40,024 bases of DNA from the UHGV virus genome UHGV-0210832; one strand, written 5' to 3'. Below the pieces are notes generated by a model, which was not told where the DNA came from, did no database searches, and saw only the letters and a list, made by a program, of their open reading frames with translations. Positions 1 to 40,012 of the stretch are shown piece by piece. This stretch comes from a virus. The position numbers and the translations under genes are program-made. How positions within the stretch are numbered: the first letter of the stretch is position 1; the number at the start of each line of letters is the position of its first letter.

Positions 1-1644
1 GCCAATGGCAAAATTTATATCGGTAAAATTGACACGGATCCGGTAAATCCTGAAAACCAGATTCAGGTTTATGTAGAGAATGAAGATGGCTCTCACGTTC
101 CTGTTTCGCAACCAATCATCATTAACGCTGCTGGATATCCGGTATATAACGGACAGATTGCCAAGTTCGTAACTGTGCAAGGCCATTCTATGGCTGTTTA
201 TGATGCATATGGTGCGCAGCAGTTCTATTTCCCTAATGTGCTGAAGTACGACCCTGATCAATTTGAGAAGAGATTGACATCTTCTGGAGGGGACAAATTA
301 GTAGGGAGCTCATGGGGAGGCGGAAGTGTTTGGGATGACTATGTGGCAAAAAAATTTGCTATTAAAGTGATTAACATTTATCCGACGATGTCAAATGATG
401 AGATTAATTCAATACTTTCTGCTGGCGGACATATTTACTTCAATGCTGGTACTTATACTGTTACATCCACATCAGAGACATTTAAGCTTGGTCAAAACAG
501 CATAGTTTATTTTCATCCAAATGCGCTTTTAATGGCTGGGGCCGATGGGGTTACGGTTCTTAGGGCATCTTCGCTAGATGTTGATTCTTCTTTCATCAGA
601 AATTGTAAAATACATGATGTACGCATTGATCTTTCAGGATTTAGCAACTGTATCGGTTTGCATCTATACAGCGCCAGGAACAACACTGGTGTTTTCGAAC
701 CTTGGGTTGATATGGGGGTAGGCACAGGGAATACAGGCATTAAAATTGAATTTATGAGTTACGGGATTATTATCGCTAACTCAGAAATTCTGAATGGCGG
801 CGCAGGTGGGAAACGTTTGTTTGTCCTTAATGGTCCGAACGCTATTACGATTAAAGACCATCGTGGATATTCTGCCGACCCGGCAAACAAGTGCGATTAT
901 GGCGTCGTAATTTTTAATGGCGTTGATGGAAGTACTGATGTTGATTTCGTGAATACATTCACAACTTCTGCTGTATGTATTACTGGTGGTTTTATCCAGA
1001 ATACAAGTCAGTTTGGACTTTATGACAGCGCTGATGGAACAAACGTCTACGGAACTTACTTTGAAAGTAACGATGTTGCTGATATTAGTTTGAGTAGTGG
1101 TAGTCGAGATTTTTACTGTTCTGGAGTACAACACAGTCACTCAAAAGGTGATTGCATGTATCGAGGAAGGGGATGTGTAGGTGCTGTCATACAATCACCA
1201 AACAACGGACTTAGAGCACGTATGTTCGACTTTTCTGGTTCTAGCAAATGTTATGCTTACATACCAAGAGCCAGAGCATTCCCCGGAGGAACAGTCATCC
1301 CAATTGGTAATACTGATGGCCTTGCTTTAGACAGGGGGAGTCAGTCGTTTCTACAATACTCGCAGTCATCGCTTCCTATAGATATTCGCCAGGGATATGC
1401 TGTGTATTATCTTAATGTAACTTCAGGGATGAACATCACTATATCTGGAACGCCATATAACGGGCAAAAGATAAATATTGTTGCCAGGGGAAGTGAGATA
1501 TCTTCCCTATCATTCGCTGGCGTTCCAGTTGATGTTACTGGCGCTAATACAACTCAAATAAAGACCGCTTCATTCACTGCAACATATTGGAGTGAGATTA
1601 ATAAGTGGACATTAACAATGCCTCAATGGACAGCCTCATCATGA
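1..1644 (+). CDS. Tailspike protein, 5'-partial (reading frame 1 is open from base 1; the first ~25 codons lie outside the window)
   Basis: Frame-1 translation from base 1 reads [33 protein letters not shown]...[15 protein letters not shown], which matches my recollection of the P22 tailspike head-binding domain. The C-terminal ~450 aa is unrelated to the P22 receptor domain. Stop at 1642-1644. Confidence 0.85.
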
Positions 1645-1879
1645 TTTAAATTACCAATACGGTTAAAGATAAACAAAGCTTTGTACTGGATTGCAAGGCT
1701 TTGTGCTATTCGATAGTTAAGGCGGATCACTCCACCTTTTCATCAAGCCAGTCCGCCCACCACTGCATCATTTCTCTGCGCTTATCTAGATACTGAGCAT
1801 GGTTGTAAATTCAACTAACCCAGTGCGTTGACAAAAAATTAGCGCAAGAGGACAAAAAATCACCTTGCGCTAATGCTCT

Positions 1880-2125
1880 GTCTCAGGTCACTAATACTAT
1901 CTAAATAGTTGATTCATAGTGACTGGGTATGTTGTGTTTTGTCGCATTTTATAGTCTGTTATTTAACCGCAAATGCGTATAACAATATGATTTTTAAATA
2001 ATTTATATGATTTTGTCATCCTTTAATAAGTAAAGTTGCACATTTAAAATCTCTTTAATTATCAATAAACTACAATGTATAGGTCATTATTAGTCAAAAT
2101 AAAATCATTTGTTGATTTCAATTTT
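1880..2125. other. attP: attP region: lambda-like Int arm-type sites (P arm about 1885-1935, P' arm about 2081-2125) flanking a divergent core near 2015-2040
   Basis: Sequence aggtcactaatactatctaaatagttgattcatagtgactg (1885-1925) and ggtcattattagtcaaaataaaatcatttgttgatttcaattttgtccc (2082-2130) closely resemble my recollection of the lambda attP P and P' arms. The core tcatcctttaataagtaaagttgca (about 2017-2040) differs from the lambda core. Confidence 0.6.
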
Positions 2126-3178
2126 GTCCCATTCTCTCCCTCGGCTGTCCCTATACCGCGCCGCCATTGAATCTGATTTATGCCCGAGAAGACGTTGAGC
2201 AAACTTATCGCCAATCTGATTCCGGTATAGCCTCGCCGACAGGCTACGCAGTTCATGGAATGTTGGCGGGTCTCCATCAAATGAGAGTCCAGATGCATTT
2301 CTCGCCTTTGTAAAATACTTAGATACTGTTTTCGGGGAAAGCGGTTCGTGATGCGTTGATGCAATTATTGTTTCACTGCCGCTGGCCTCCCTGCATTTCT
2401 GTAGTGTATCAGCCAATGAAATATTGAGCGCGTCAATCGTTAGCGTCAGCGGAATGGCGAGCTTAGCCCCTGTTTTACCCTGTTCAATGTGAAGATGGTT
2501 GTCGTTTATGTCTGACCATTTCATTTTGCACAAATCGCCGACTCTCTGACCTGTAACGACGGCCAAATCCATCGCAAGCCTCAGCCAGATTGGGAGAGGT
2601 TCGGCTGCATGGTGAATTGCGACATACTCATTAGCTGTCAGCCTTGAGCGCCTTACTTCTGACTTTGCTGTGCGGGTTGCTGTTACCGGATTCGTAGCCA
2701 CATGCCCCTCGGCTATTGCCTCACGAAAAACGTCAACAAGGGTTGACCTGATTAATTTTGCGGAAGCCGCTTTACCTTCTGCTACGTAGGTGTTTAGCAT
2801 TGCTGCCACCTCTTTCGTTGATATGTCAGCGAGCGGTTTGTCCGGCAATTTTCTTCGGATTGCCCTGATTTTGCTGGCGTAGTCGAGTAGAGTTTTCGGC
2901 CTGATACCCCTCTCGCTGAGGATTGTTTCATATCGGTCAAGCCACGCATGAAGAGTTATTGCGTCAGCGCCTTTAATTCTGTCTATCAGTGACTCACGCC
3001 TGTTCCCGGATAGCAACTCAATATTGGCCTGTATAGCTTCAGTGATTGCTATGCGTCTGTCTCGGCCTAATCCGAACTCTTTACCCGTCCTTGGGTCCCT
3101 GTAGCAGTAATATCCATTGTTTCTTATATAAAGATTAGGGGGTAAATCCCGGCGCTCATGACTTCGCCTTCTTCCCAT
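2105..3178 (-). CDS. int: Tyrosine integrase, lambda Int family
   Basis: 357 aa; N-terminus MGRRRSHERRDLPPNLYIRNNGYYCYRDPRTGKEFGLGRDRR and C-terminus HELRSLSARLY...LLGHKSDSMAARYRDSRGREWDKIEI match my recollection of lambda Int almost throughout. Confidence 0.95.
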   Translation of the reverse strand: MGRRRSHERRDLPPNLYIRNNGYYCYRDPRTGKEFGLGRDRRIAITEAIQANIELLSGNRRESLIDRIKGADAITLHAWLDRYETILSERGIRPKTLLDYASKIRAIRRKLPDKPLADISTKEVAAMLNTYVAEGKAASAKLIRSTLVDVFREAIAEGHVATNPVTATRTAKSEVRRSRLTANEYVAIHHAAEPLPIWLRLAMDLAVVTGQRVGDLCKMKWSDINDNHLHIEQGKTGAKLAIPLTLTIDALNISLADTLQKCREASGSETIIASTHHEPLSPKTVSKYFTKARNASGLSFDGDPPTFHELRSLSARLYRNQIGDKFAQRLLGHKSDSMAARYRDSRGREWDKIEINK

Positions 3179-3374
3179 TTCTGATCCTCTTCAAAAGGCT
3201 ACCTGTTACTGGTCGATTTAAGTCAACCTTTACCGCTGATTCGTGGAACAGATATTCTCTTCCATCCTTAACCGGAGGAGGGAATATCCTGCACTCGCGC
3301 ACCCATCGACGAACTGTTTCAAGGCTTCTTGGGCGTCGCTGGCGTGCGTTCCACTCCTGAAGTGTCAAGTACAT
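3156..3374 (-). CDS. xis: Excisionase
   Basis: 72 aa MYLTLQEWNARQRRPRSLETVRRWVRECRIFPPPVKDGREYLFHESAVKVDLNRPVTGSLLKRIRNGKKAKS appears essentially identical to lambda Xis as I recall it. Overlaps the int start as in lambda. Confidence 0.92.
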   Translation of the reverse strand: MYLTLQEWNARQRRPRSLETVRRWVRECRIFPPPVKDGREYLFHESAVKVDLNRPVTGSLLKRIRNGKKAKS

Positions 3375-3428
3375 CGCAAAGTCTCCGCAATTACTCGCAA
3401 GGGAACGAGTAGTGGTTGATTTTCTCCA

Positions 3429-3450
3429 ACAAAAAAGGAGCCGAAGCTCC
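3429..3450 (-). terminator. Candidate intrinsic terminator (minus strand) between upstream early genes and xis
   Basis: Minus-strand GGAGCTTCGGCTCC hairpin (5-bp GC-rich stem, TTCG loop) followed by TTTTTTGTT; + strand coordinates 3437-3450 for the hairpin, A-run 3431-3436. Confidence 0.45.
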
Positions 3451-3458
3451 TTTGATGA

Positions 3459-4082
3459 TTAAAATTCGAATTGTCTCGCCCGAAGGCTTTTCAACATTGG
3501 TCTTGCCCGTTCGAAAACGGCGCTTGTCTGATCAAGTCGTGTCGCCTCCCTTAGCAGTACATCTCTGTTTTTCGTCACCGCATAGAAGGTTTCAAACGCA
3601 ATGTCATACAGCTTACTCGCGTATGATGAGTTAAGTTCCTTCATTATCGGGTACAGGCGTTTGCAGATGTCCTGTGCATTCTCCATCTGTACCTGCATGT
3701 AGCACAGGAGGATGATTTCTTCGTCTGTGAATTGCTGCGCTGGTTGCATGTTGCGAAGTATCTTTTCGCACTCGATGAAGTATCGGCGTATCTGGCGGCC
3801 TTTTTCGTTACGCTCGACCATCGCCAGTTCTTTGGCTGTGTCGAGGGTGAGGTGGTAGTCCTTGCGGTTGTGACCGCCTCTACCAGATGTTTGCTTTCCC
3901 AAATTGGAAAGCAAAATATAGTCTTGATTTTCAATGAATTCGTATTCTGAAATGCGATTTGTAATCCATGCCGCAAACACCTTTTTCACGCCTAAAAAAG
4001 CATGCAGATCGCGGGCATTGCAGAGTAGGGCTGTTTCGTTGGATATAGTGCCGTTGAATACGGGGATGAGTTGACTGGTCAT
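3459..4082 (-). CDS. AntA/AntB-type antirepressor-like protein
   Basis: Start moved to MTSQLIPVFNG (ATG 4082-4080) because of GGAGG 5 nt upstream. NARDLHAFLGVKKVFAAWITNRISEYEFIENQDY resembles the AntA N-terminal domain as I recall it. Confidence 0.55.
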   Translation of the reverse strand: MTSQLIPVFNGTISNETALLCNARDLHAFLGVKKVFAAWITNRISEYEFIENQDYILLSNLGKQTSGRGGHNRKDYHLTLDTAKELAMVERNEKGRQIRRYFIECEKILRNMQPAQQFTDEEIILLCYMQVQMENAQDICKRLYPIMKELNSSYASKLYDIAFETFYAVTKNRDVLLREATRLDQTSAVFERARPMLKSLRARQFEF

Positions 4083-4244
4083 GATGACCTCCTTTGAAGT
4101 TTTAGTTAGCAATCACCAGTTAGTGGCTGGTGATCGGGTGTCAACTAGAGCCTTCAAAGACGCTCCGGGCATATTCCCCTTGCGGGTATTGTATTACGCC
4201 TCTCCACCCGACCTTTGTACGGATGTGACTATGCCAAATTGCAG

Positions 4245-4277
4245 GCATAAAAAAGCCGCAAAGCTATCGGGTGCGGA
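4245..4277 (-). terminator. Candidate intrinsic terminator inside the 355-bp intergenic gap of the leftward operon
   Basis: Minus-strand CCGCA-(11 nt loop)-TGCGG followed by CTTTTTTAT. A TTGACA hexamer lies about 40 nt upstream on the same strand. Confidence 0.35.
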
Positions 4278-4437
4278 TGACCGCTTTGAAGTTCTAGTGC
4301 GGTCAGTATGCGATAGCTCGAGCGGATTTGTCAAATCATGTAGTCTTTATCTTGCTGTAAGCCGCGCCATTCGGGCTTTTCCCCAGATTTGGGGGAAACT
4401 ATCTGCGAAGTATTCACCTTTAACGGCAAGTTGCAGG

Positions 4438-5001
4438 TTAGCCACGGTTAACCTCCTGCTTCGGTGCTGCTGGCATTTCACGCCAGTGCGTAACTGAGTG
4501 CGGATTCGGATATTCGGTGCCATCATCCCAGCGATTACCATTCCACATTGCAGACCACATCTCACCGTCTTCATACATGACCATTACCGGAATTAACTTA
4601 TCCGGCATTTGCTCACTACAGCTTATCCAGCCAGCCGGAGTTACCGGAGGGGTACCCGATAGCGCATTCTGCTCCAGTGATGCTTTTACAAACCACGCTG
4701 CCTGAACTATTACGCCATGAATCCAGCGCAAATCAGCATCGCGATCGTTCTTTTTCATCTTTTCACCACTTAAAGCCTGGCTTATGTGGCTGCGAACCAG
4801 GTCTTCATGTAACTCCTTCGCATCCTCAATGGTGAAACCACCAGGTAAACGCCCCGGAGTTACCGGAGAGTTACCAGCCTTGCGCATGGCAATTTCCACG
4901 ATTTCAACCATATCTTCTGGCAGAATTTTACAAAGCTGGCCAAAGCGCCTCTGCTGCCTGGCATACTCGAGGATGTGCTCCAGTTTGGTTCGATTAATCA
5001 T
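4438..5001 (-). CDS. Hypothetical phage protein, DUF551-like C-terminal region
   Basis: 187 aa ORF; ATG overlaps the stop of the upstream gene (ATGA coupling). C-terminal WISCSEQMPD...WDDGTEYPNPHSVTHWREMP resembles DUF551 phage proteins (from memory). Confidence 0.5.
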   Translation of the reverse strand: MINRTKLEHILEYARQQRRFGQLCKILPEDMVEIVEIAMRKAGNSPVTPGRLPGGFTIEDAKELHEDLVRSHISQALSGEKMKKNDRDADLRWIHGVIVQAAWFVKASLEQNALSGTPPVTPAGWISCSEQMPDKLIPVMVMYEDGEMWSAMWNGNRWDDGTEYPNPHSVTHWREMPAAPKQEVNRG

Positions 5002-5366
5002 GATTTATCCCCCTTAAGCATGGCTGCACGGCAGGCGTTCCATCCTCTCACCTCTGCAATAGCGGCAACAGCATCAACCGCGTACATGCTAAGAGGGTTC
5101 GGCATTGGTTTTTCTTCCGGCACTACTGGCGCTGGAGGGGCGGCGTATACTTCAATTGTCCCATTATCAATAGGCCACTCCCCATCCTTGATGTAGTCAC
5201 TTGTGCCATCGACCTGCTGTTCTGCAATGTGGAAAGCACCTATTGGTTTTGCTTCCAGTGATGCCAGTGCAATCCGTGCCAGTTCCATTTGTTCGCCACG
5301 AGTAAGTCCGTTATCAAGAGGATTTTTAATGAATAATTTGATACGTTCTTTGGTTATAGCGCTCAT
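4998..5366 (-). CDS. Hypothetical protein (122 aa)
   Basis: Start chosen at MSAITKERIK (ATG 5366-5364) with AAGGAGAG RBS 6 nt upstream; the longer track ORF begins in the preceding gene. Confidence 0.55.
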   Translation of the reverse strand: MSAITKERIKLFIKNPLDNGLTRGEQMELARIALASLEAKPIGAFHIAEQQVDGTSDYIKDGEWPIDNGTIEVYAAPPAPVVPEEKPMPNPLSMYAVDAVAAIAEVRGWNACRAAMLKGDKS

Positions 5367-5367
5367 A

Positions 5368-6006
5368 TCACTCTCCTTTAATGCGAATGCCAGCGGCGCG
5401 TGGCACATTAACTTCCACGATGCGCACAGTTGGTTTGTACATCTCAATCGCTGTCAGCCAGTCAGCGCCAGTCATGCGCTTTTCTGCATCGCCATTAGTC
5501 CACTTAACCGGTACACCAATAGCCTTCATCGCGATTTCTATTTCCCCGGCAATGGCGCTTTTTCCGCAACCAGTAAAACCAGAAACAACGACAAGAACTT
5601 CACCTTTGGCTGGTTTTATTTCCCGCGCTTCCAGTTCAGCAATACGCTTACTCCCATCCGAGATAACACCTTCGTAATACTCGCGTTGCTCGTTGAGTTT
5701 TGATTTTGCTTCCTCAAGCTCAACACGCAGTTTCCCCACCGTTAGCGCAATTTCCTCGTTCTCCTGGTCGCGGGATTTGATGTATTGCTGGTTCCTTTCC
5801 CGTTCATCCAGTAGTGCCAAAGCAACCTTTGGATTAAAGGCAGCAATAAATTCAGCGTTGTTTTTCAGAACGTGTTGCGCAATGGCCTGACTACTTAGTC
5901 GGACCTCATAACCACGTGCGCCACGGTGTGGTTTATATGAGTCCCAGTCTCCCCACGTTGCTTTCTCTGCCGCTTCACGCAGTGCCTGATAGTCAATCTT
6001 GCTCAC
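5368..6006 (-). CDS. Ead/Ea22-like protein
   Basis: 212 aa; N-terminal MSKIDYQALREAAEKATWGDW... and central coiled-coil resemble the Ead/Ea22 family common in lambdoid early-left regions (from memory). Confidence 0.6.
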   Translation of the reverse strand: MSKIDYQALREAAEKATWGDWDSYKPHRGARGYEVRLSSQAIAQHVLKNNAEFIAAFNPKVALALLDERERNQQYIKSRDQENEEIALTVGKLRVELEEAKSKLNEQREYYEGVISDGSKRIAELEAREIKPAKGEVLVVVSGFTGCGKSAIAGEIEIAMKAIGVPVKWTNGDAEKRMTGADWLTAIEMYKPTVRIVEVNVPRAAGIRIKGE

Positions 6007-39133: not shown

Positions 39134-40012
39134 ATGAAAAGTATAGCAAAGGCACAAAACGATTTCACCATCTTCAAATTCGGCGACAGTGAAATCCGCG
39201 TCATCAACAAATGCGGTGAGCCGTGGTTTGTAGCAAAAGATGTTTGTGATGCTTTAACCCTGACTAACTCACGCAAGGCGCTTACTGCACTTGATGACGA
39301 TGAAAAGGGAGTAACTTTAAGTTACACCCTTGGTGGTGAGCAGAATCTAAGCATTGTTAGCGAATCAGGTATGTATACATTGGTTCTGCGCTGCCGCGAT
39401 GCTGTCAATAAAGGTTCGGTCCCGCACAAATTCCGCAAGTGGGTAACAGCAGAAGTTCTACCTTCAATTCGCAAACATGGCGAGTATGTGAAAGGCAAGA
39501 AAACCACTGTTGAGGAAAGAACGCCGCTACGCGATGCAGTAAACATGCTGGTAGGAAAGAAAGGACTTCGCTATGACGATGCATACAATATGGTTCATCA
39601 GCGTTTTGGTATTGACAGCATTGATGAACTTTCAATTGAACAAATCCCGCTGGCCGTAGAGTACATCCACAGGGTAGTGCTTGAAGGCGAGTTTATCGGC
39701 AAACAAGAGAAGAAAACCAACGAGCTTTCTGCAAAAGAAGCAAACAGCCTTGTATGGTTATGGGATTATGCCAACCGTTCACAGGCATTATTCCGCGAAC
39801 TGTATCCGGCGCTAAAACAAATTCAATCGAACTATTCCGGCAGATGCTACGACTACGGTCATGAGTTCTCGTATGTTATCGGAATGGCGAGAGACGTTTT
39901 AATAAACCACACACGAGATGTTGATATTAATGAGCCAGACGGACCAACGAATCTTTCCGCATGGATGAGACTTAAGAATAAAGAATTACCTCCTTCAGTA
40001 CATAACTACTGA
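39134..40012 (+). CDS. ant: Antirepressor Ant (Bro-N/AntA N-terminal domain)
   Basis: 292 aa; N-terminal [45 protein letters not shown] is a classic Bro-N/Ant pattern; follows arc as in P22 immI. Confidence 0.8.

Follow-up and report, generated by a model that had tools for sequence, protein, structure and literature searches.

The phage genome analysed here carries, between its tailspike gene and int, an attP that, as judged from its sequence, belongs to an integrase module of the long-known HK022 type and not of the lambda type; what sets it apart from HK022 is the 7-bp overlap between its core-type sites, AATAAGT. We consider it likely that the best candidate for the attB of this phage is a ybeT-like gene with Sel1 repeats in Escherichia albertii. 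The combination of lambda-type arms, a non-lambda core and an HK022-type Int has been textbook knowledge since about 1990. The novelty here is modest and lies in a natural variant of the overlap together with a probable new attB in a second species, and in the finding that identical copies of the Int protein are paired with different overlaps at different loci.

The attachment site and its genes

The window, by which we mean the whole stretch of DNA analysed (40,024 nucleotides), is the genome of a mosaic P22-like temperate phage. Its top overall relatives were the Escherichia phages Gally, JEP4, HK620, CUS-3 and HK97, each of which covered 30-40% of the first 25 kb. In P22-like genomes an ant-like gene precedes the tailspike gene; in the window it lies at the far end, and the window is therefore an almost full circular permutation. 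The genes and sites that concern us are the following, where sequences are divided by hyphens at the edges of the overlap here and below.

1..1644, plus strand: 3' part of the tailspike gene, from the list of open reading frames; the start lies outside the window; stop codon at 1642-1644
1839..1873: sib / tI hairpin, stem TTAGCGCAAG ... CTTGCGCTAA, near-identical in the alignment with lambda and HK022
1885..2111, plus strand: whole attP (P arm, core and P' arm), by homology to the annotated HK022 attP (X51962, 243-469)
1885..1894, plus strand: arm-type Int site P1, AGGTCACTAA, sequence and position as in lambda and HK022
1916..1925, minus strand: arm-type Int site P2, CAGTCACTAT on the minus strand, an exact match to the arm consensus and conserved in the alignment
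2018..2024, plus strand: core-type site C, ATCCTTT, identical to the C site of HK022
2025..2031, plus strand: overlap O, AATAAGT, the 7 bp between the predicted strand-exchange points, with its register taken from the alignment with lambda and HK022
2032..2038, plus strand: core-type site C', AAAGTTG, reverse complement CAACTTT
2081-2090, 2091-2100 and 2101-2110, plus strand: arm-type sites P'1, P'2 and P'3, identical to HK022 and with 1-2 changes relative to lambda
2105..3178, minus strand: int, 357 aa, HK022-type heterobivalent tyrosine integrase
3156..3374, minus strand: xis, 72 aa, overlapping the start of int
3459..4082, minus strand: AntA/P22_AR_C-type gene, adjoining xis and outside the att machinery
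39134-40012: ant-like gene at the far end of the window

Window positions 1860-2125 aligned end to end with the annotated HK022 attP (87% identity over 266 bp, E 8e-84) and, also over their full length, with the annotated lambda attP (76% identity, E 2e-41), which confirmed the place that the initial annotation had assigned to the attP. The arms aligned without gaps with those of both phages, so that P1, P2 and P'1-P'3 have the lambda spacing around the core; P'3 overlaps the int stop codon. A bare scan for the arm consensus over 40 kb gave 61 matches where 54 were expected, which is not above chance, and the evidence for the arm sites is therefore their positional homology and not the number of motifs. 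The HK022 stretch homologous to the hairpin at 1839-1873 is annotated as 'sib transcription processing site'; sib is a site of retroregulation that lies downstream of int across attP, and the hairpin is conserved in the window. The features of the lambda family were thus present in the form of a three-domain Int with R-K-H-R-H-Y, an Xis gene overlapping int, and sib beyond attP. Across the core the window attP reads CATCCTTTAATAAGTAAAGTTGCAC, and both the geometry and the sequence fit a 7-7-7 arrangement in which two inverted core-type sites surround a 7-bp overlap (ATCCTTT-AATAAGT-AAAGTTG); the predicted cleavage positions are at the edges of this overlap. The intact attP is flanked by the tailspike gene, which ends at 1644, and by int (2105-3178), and the sequence is therefore in the phage arrangement, as the initial annotation had proposed from the adjacency of these two genes.

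The N terminus of the tailspike is of the P22 head-binding type; among its relatives, those at 97% identity are 573 aa long and carry Pfam PF09008 Head_binding, and they occurred only in E. coli-labelled prophages with a P22-type (other) integrase and gtr genes. The receptor-binding part was 98.9% identical to the prophage tailspikes of E. coli C41 (CP127252) and MB50 (CP073949), where a DUF6056 gene comes next, in place of attP, and relatives at about 75% identity were tail-spike proteins of Enterobacter hormaechei prophages. A hunt for lysogens by way of these tailspike relatives yielded no information on att or host; in a second hunt, by way of the Ant gene at the end of the window, 1659 blocks were found to carry Ant, far too many to help. 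A 2.6-kb Logan contig of SRR8240711 matched window positions 3065-5667 at 99.96% identity and ended within int; the same contig was the single carrier of the 187-aa DUF551 protein.

Integrase type, core sequence and the loci used by relatives

The initial annotation had described the arms, Int and Xis as nearly those of lambda. This was borne out for Xis, which matched lambda Xis at 71 of 72 residues and HK022 Xis at all 72, and for Int residues 1-55, which are identical to lambda, but not for Int as a whole, where identity was 97.2% with HK022 Int and just 75.8% with lambda Int. The preference for HK022 was seen in each domain: the arm-binding domain (1-64) was 100% identical to HK022 and 90.6% to lambda, the core-binding domain (65-169) 99.0% and 69.5%, and the catalytic domain (170-357) 95.2% and 74.3%. 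Similarly, the arm sites occupy the lambda positions but the arms are closer in sequence to those of HK022, and the int-xis-attP DNA as a whole was 94% identical to HK022 and about 77% identical to lambda-type phages. The catalytic residues of Int are all intact (R212, K235, H308, R311, H333 and Y342); Pfam analysis of an identical Int protein gave PF09003, PF22022, PF02899 and PF00589, and that of Xis gave PF07825.

Window Int carries the HK022-type residues D99, P282, K283, K287, R319 and R329. Substitutions that turn lambda Int towards the HK022 site include N99D and H329R (PMC10863862). When Int was aligned with lambda and HK022 Int, as the initial annotation had suggested, the residues at all of the tested positions were those of HK022, which speaks against a modified lambda protein. 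Dorgai, Yagil and Weisberg reportedly found in 1995 that positions 282, 283, 287 and 319 are the remaining determinants of specificity. The Int domains, the tested residues and the C site are all of HK022 type, and the altered core-binding specificity that had been read from the core is therefore the known specificity of HK022; it is indeed not that of lambda, but the element that differs from HK022 is the overlap. The three cores compare as follows.

Lambda core: C CAGCTTT, O TTTATAC, C' TAAGTTG
HK022 core: C ATCCTTT, O AGGTGAA, C' TAAGTTG
Window core, 2018-2038: C ATCCTTT, O AATAAGT, C' AAAGTTG

Half-sites of the HK022-type family end in CTTW; the window has the C of HK022 and a C' whose reverse complement is CAACTTT. 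The lambda core CAGCTTTTTTATACTAAGTTG, whose presence near the site would, by the initial annotation's own test, have spoken against its reading, had no match anywhere in the window with up to 3 mismatches allowed. In outline, then, that annotation was right to assign the module to the lambda integrase family, with lambda-type arms, a non-lambda core and a site other than lambda attB.

The exact 357-aa Int was listed in 599 blocks of the assembly collection. E. coli prophages with this identical Int (CP034212, CP148463, RM14723 and FORC 064 are examples) were located at panC-rpnC and at the ibs/sib repeats that lie upstream of mdtA. The junctions and empty sites at the ibs/sib repeats, together with the junctions at the torS-torT site, read as follows.

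ibs/sib-mdtA lysogens, attL: GGCCTTA-AATAAGG-TAAGTTG
ibs/sib-mdtA lysogens, attR: ATCCTTT-AATAAGG-AAAGGGT, then the ibs start codon
K-12, empty ibsB site: GGCCATA-AATAAGG-AAAGGGT
K-12, empty ibsA site: GGCTTTT-AATAAGG-AAAGGGT
torT-side attR: ATCCTTT-AGGTGAA-AAAGGTT
torS-side attL: GCACTTT-AGGTGAA-TAAGTTG

At the ibs sites the identity between attP and attB is exactly the 7-bp overlap, and the register of the overlap was thereby confirmed. Prophages with the overlap AGGTGAA and with a P-arm end 100% identical to that of the window were sited at torS/torT. Comparison of the junctions at ibs with those at torS/torT therefore showed that the same arms and near-identical Ints pair with different overlaps and different targets. 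The prophages at ibs/mdtA and panC-rpnC share with the window an Int identical over 357 aa and near-identical P and P' arms; their overlap, however, is AATAAGG (a match to the AATAAGT of the window at 6 of 7 positions) and C' starts with T, whereas it starts with A in the window.

In K-12 the ibs locus (L010, 2250-3030) contains tandem sibA/ibsA and sibB/ibsB repeats, each with a B-O-B' whose AATAAGG lies on the ibs ribosome-binding site, and integration at these repeats parts the ibs toxin gene from its upstream region. Some lysogens (L016) retain one ibs copy between attL and mdtA and others (L013) retain none; more than one repeat copy therefore appears to act as attB. At panC-rpnC the junctions of the identical-Int prophages are off register (attL in L015, L019 and L008; attR in L076; empty K-12 site in L101). 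The empty site there is TAACTTA-AATAAGG-TTAATTACC, with a poor B' half-site (reverse complement GTAATTA); attL, ...AATAAGGTTAAGTTG, has one T above expectation and attR, ...AATAAGGTAATTACC, one T below it, and the exchange therefore seemingly took place to the right of the canonical overlap.

Other arrangements of the same parts were also seen. In L020 (CASDMV010000035.1) a prophage with the identical Int has its P' arm fused at ...GGAAAATATTC-AATAAGG-TAAGTTG, where the left half-site is poor, to DNA of another prophage with cif and ospG-like effector genes. The canonical attP, ATCCTTT-AATAAGG-TAAGTTG, is intact in L014 (JACYGE010000009.1), where int is followed by other prophage genes, and an intact HK022-type attP lies in the chromosome of E. 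coli EC5931 (L078, CP104592) between a tailspike gene and int; the intact attPs of L014 and L078 suggest tandem prophages, a prophage within a prophage, or rearrangements. Several records of Stx1a-converting phages, for example LC744181 (L002), begin at an HK022-type core, GCACTTA-AGGTGAA-TAAGTTG, and their host flank is the torS-side flank of HK022-type lysogens (compared with L081); the attB of these Stx1a phages is therefore that of HK022, apart from a single base in B. When the literature was searched for mdtA/yegL, ibsA and ybeT as prophage sites, the only find was a table entry that places a lambda-like prophage of an STEC O145:H25 strain at yegL (PMC7437938); there was none for ybeT.

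A candidate attB in Escherichia albertii

Searches with the core itself gave no match outside the window. Neither the P'-side pattern AATAAGTAAAGTTGCAYATTTAAAAT nor its P-side counterpart TTTGTCATCCTTTAATAAGT had a match in the GTDB species representatives, IMG/VR or the JGI metagenomes, and the exact core of the window was absent from 5,426 complete E. coli genomes and from the INPHARED phages. A K-12 ibs/sib paralogue with AATAAGT was considered and rejected: ibsA and ibsB have AATAAGG, and ibsC, ibsD and ibsE have other sequences. A broader pattern, TTGTCATCCTTTAATAAG, had 44 matches in GTDB representatives, all of them in unrelated taxa and attributed to chance, and a gapped core pattern retrieved from IMG/VR just HK022 and mEp235 plus two chance matches.

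The AntA-like protein encoded at 3459-4082 proved more informative. Exact copies of it were found on only 7 contigs, beside lambda-type, HK022-type and window-type int cassettes. The identical protein adjoins xis next to a lambda-type Int at ybhC (L080 and L082), next to an HK022-type Int at torS (L081), and in the window type; the int-xis-att cassette has therefore been swapped as a unit at the AntA boundary. The AntA trail led to L079, contig ABHXOV010000016.1 of E. albertii GCA_024950485.1, in which the P' arm matches that of the window at 100% identity from AAAGTTGCAC up to the int stop and abuts a Sel1-repeat gene whose identity to E. coli ybeT is only about 83%. The fused protein, EJS1736227.1, is named Escherichia albertii by NCBI. 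The int-xis-antA block of this prophage is 98.3% identical in DNA to that of the window, whereas its Int differs at 10 residues and the rest is only 90-96% identical.

A protein search with the host part retrieved an uninterrupted allele of 184 aa (P0001), and all members of its cluster are named E. albertii. The DNA of this intact allele (P0001/L097) reads CGGCGAACTTAAATAAGTAAAGACATAATGG, and the site itself is CGGCGAACTTA-AATAAGT-AAAGACA-TAATGG, with the B-O-B' GAACTTA-AATAAGT-AAAGACA. Its overlap is identical to that of the window at 7 of 7 positions, and the match spans 11 of 11 in AATAAGTAAAG; each of its two half-sites, GAACTTA and TGTCTTT (the latter read on the opposite strand), ends in CTTW, as do the other sites of the family that we saw. 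At the same place E. coli ybeT has AATAATC, and among the E. coli loci examined there was no site that matched the window core exactly. The host match to the core that the initial annotation had called for was thus found in E. albertii but not at the E. coli loci. An 11-mer match alone is expected by chance about twice per 4.7-Mb genome; this one is convincing because it lies exactly at the junction of a prophage that has the P' arm of the window. Conservation of the site at the DNA level is represented by two sequences, L097 and, for the B side, L079, together with the peptide VFTYLSS across the site, which is kept in all of the E. albertii variants listed.

The search for attL and attR in lysogens, also suggested by the initial annotation, gave this related prophage at the E. 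albertii position, with an attL that lacks one T. L079 was the sole lysogen found at the E. albertii site, and its attR is on another contig. Its attL (L079, 7045-7064), GAACTTAAATAAG-AAAGTTG, lacks the T of AATAAGT that the intact host allele and the window attP both have; the 6-bp spacer that results is not expected to function. The missing T may be a real deletion, which would probably lock the prophage in place, or an assembly error. The product of a precise attL (MCNFTYLSS..., three alleles) had no exact match in the protein collection, and no E. albertii YbeT beside phage DNA was found in IMG/VR.

For the window phage itself, for which we infer integration at E. albertii ybeT, the predicted junctions are attL GGCGAACTTAAATAAGTAAAGTTGCACATTT and attR TTTGTCATCCTTTAATAAGTAAAGACATAATGG. 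In this predicted attL (window 2032-2050 plus L097) the GCACAT of the P' arm, or ATGTGC on the other strand, offers an in-frame ATG with a stop codon before it, so that YbeT residues 40-184 would be made with MCNF at their front; in the canonical P' arm, which has GCATAT, there would be no such in-frame ATG. The HK022 P' arm supplies the promoter that drives torS in lysogens (PMC6814406). We speculate that the P' arm at ybeT would also give an in-frame ATG (MCNF-TYLSS...) for a truncated YbeT.

The target of the phage might instead be the ibs/sib repeats that precede mdtA in E. coli, with the changes from G to T at the seventh position of the overlap and from T to A at the first position of C' being tolerated polymorphisms, recent mutations or a sequence error. 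Its Int is 100% identical to the Int of the ibs/mdtA and panC lysogens, its overlap matches theirs at 6 of 7 positions, an A opening the right half-site is normal in B' sites (AAAGGGT and AAAGGTT), and no lysogen with the exact core of the window was found in the collections searched. The one overlap mismatch, however, lies next to the second exchange point, and work on lambda has shown that a single heterology in the overlap strongly lowers recombination. Moreover, the AAAGTTGCAC P' arm is present in an independent E. albertii prophage as well, and the A, at least, is therefore no sequence error; and a site with a perfect 7 of 7 overlap does exist, in E. albertii. For these reasons the ibs/sib repeats seem to us an unlikely target.

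The absence of the exact core from everything else searched, together with the defective appearance of the attL of the single related lysogen, with its 6-bp spacer, would also be expected of a dead or crippled attP, a variant core that has lost its functional partner in a phage that no longer lysogenises by integration. Such decay is very improbable, as int and xis are intact, the catalytic residues, the five arm sites and the 7-7-7 geometry are kept, and a perfectly matching B-O-B' is present in E. albertii. Still harder to credit is that lambda Int, together with Xis, evolved a specificity of core binding all its own and so came to use a new place in the chromosome. The arm sites and Xis do resemble those of lambda, as does Int over its first 55 residues, and the core is not that of lambda; but identity to HK022 Int is 99% in the core-binding domain and 95% in the catalytic domain, against 70% and 74% for lambda, every specificity position checked is of HK022 type, and the C site is that of HK022. 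Furthermore, all ten differences from HK022 Int are also present in the prophages with another overlap, whose Int protein is identical, and a new protein specificity is therefore neither needed nor indicated. We give this possibility hardly any weight, and the ybeT-like gene of E. albertii remains our preferred candidate.

Proposed mechanism and comparison with known systems

The near-identity of the module to those of HK022 and lambda allows a mechanism to be proposed. The attP would be part of an HK022-type int/xis/sib/attP recombination module carried on a mosaic P22-like phage. The N-terminal domain of Int would bind the arm sites P1, P2 and P'1-3, presumably with IHF, and its HK022-type core-binding and catalytic domains would bind C (ATCCTTT) and C' (AAAGTTG). 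Int would then pair C-O-C' with a B-O-B' of the same overlap and exchange strands 7 bp apart, at positions flanking AATAAGT, and Xis, using the same arms, would reverse the reaction. Integration in the ybeT-like gene would split it at about codon 40. For HK022 Int, the 7-bp overlap is arbitrary if identical in both partners, and B and B' need 5 bp each (PMC7736782). Going by the sequences compared here, the shift of target relative to HK022 likely occurred through the overlap alone, with Int unchanged.

We suggest, tentatively and with somewhat more doubt than conviction, that one unchanged Int may serve several targets in two species (ibsA/ibsB and panC-rpnC with AATAAGG, ybeT with AATAAGT) and that in this family a switch of host and target may come about in nature by 1-2-bp changes at the boundary between overlap and C'. 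The 'saf' mutants of lambda arise by pick-up from a secondary site, and by analogy the 1-2-bp overlap changes could have been picked up from a secondary site as well. A phage with AATAAGG-TAAG that entered AATAAGT-AAAG and was excised with the right exchange inside AAG would acquire exactly the core of the window, and the off-register junctions at panC and in L079 might be traces of such imprecise events.

If the E. albertii assignment is true, the window provides a natural case of an HK022 Int re-addressed by the 7-bp overlap alone, which so far has mainly been shown by engineering, and adds the fourth or fifth natural target of the family (torS-torT, ibs/sib-mdtA, panC-rpnC and E. albertii ybeT). 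It would also suggest a route by which close temperate phages pass between E. coli and E. albertii and, in practical terms, would give CRIM-type integration vectors an orthogonal attP/attB pair that is ready for use. It leaves our understanding of the mechanism as it was.

With lambda (J02459; attB between gal and bio) the window shares the order of sib, P1, P2, core and P'1-3, and an int that overlaps xis; it differs from lambda at Int residues 99, 282, 283, 287, 319 and 329, and the lambda core, CAGCTTT-TTTATAC-TAAGTTG, is absent. The likeness to HK022 (X51962, AF069308), whose attB lies between torS and torT (PMC6814406), is closer, since sib, the five arm sites, the C site and the 7-7-7 geometry are held in common and the mechanism is presumed to be identical. 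In contrast to HK022, an HK97-like siphovirus, the module of the window resides in a P22-like podovirus; its overlap is AATAAGT where that of HK022 is AGGTGAA (5 of the 7 positions differ), and its C' is AAAGTTG where that of HK022 is TAAGTTG. The torS-torT attB and the junctions at torS/torT carry AGGTGAA, unlike the window, and for this reason the torS-torT site is not the target of the window phage.
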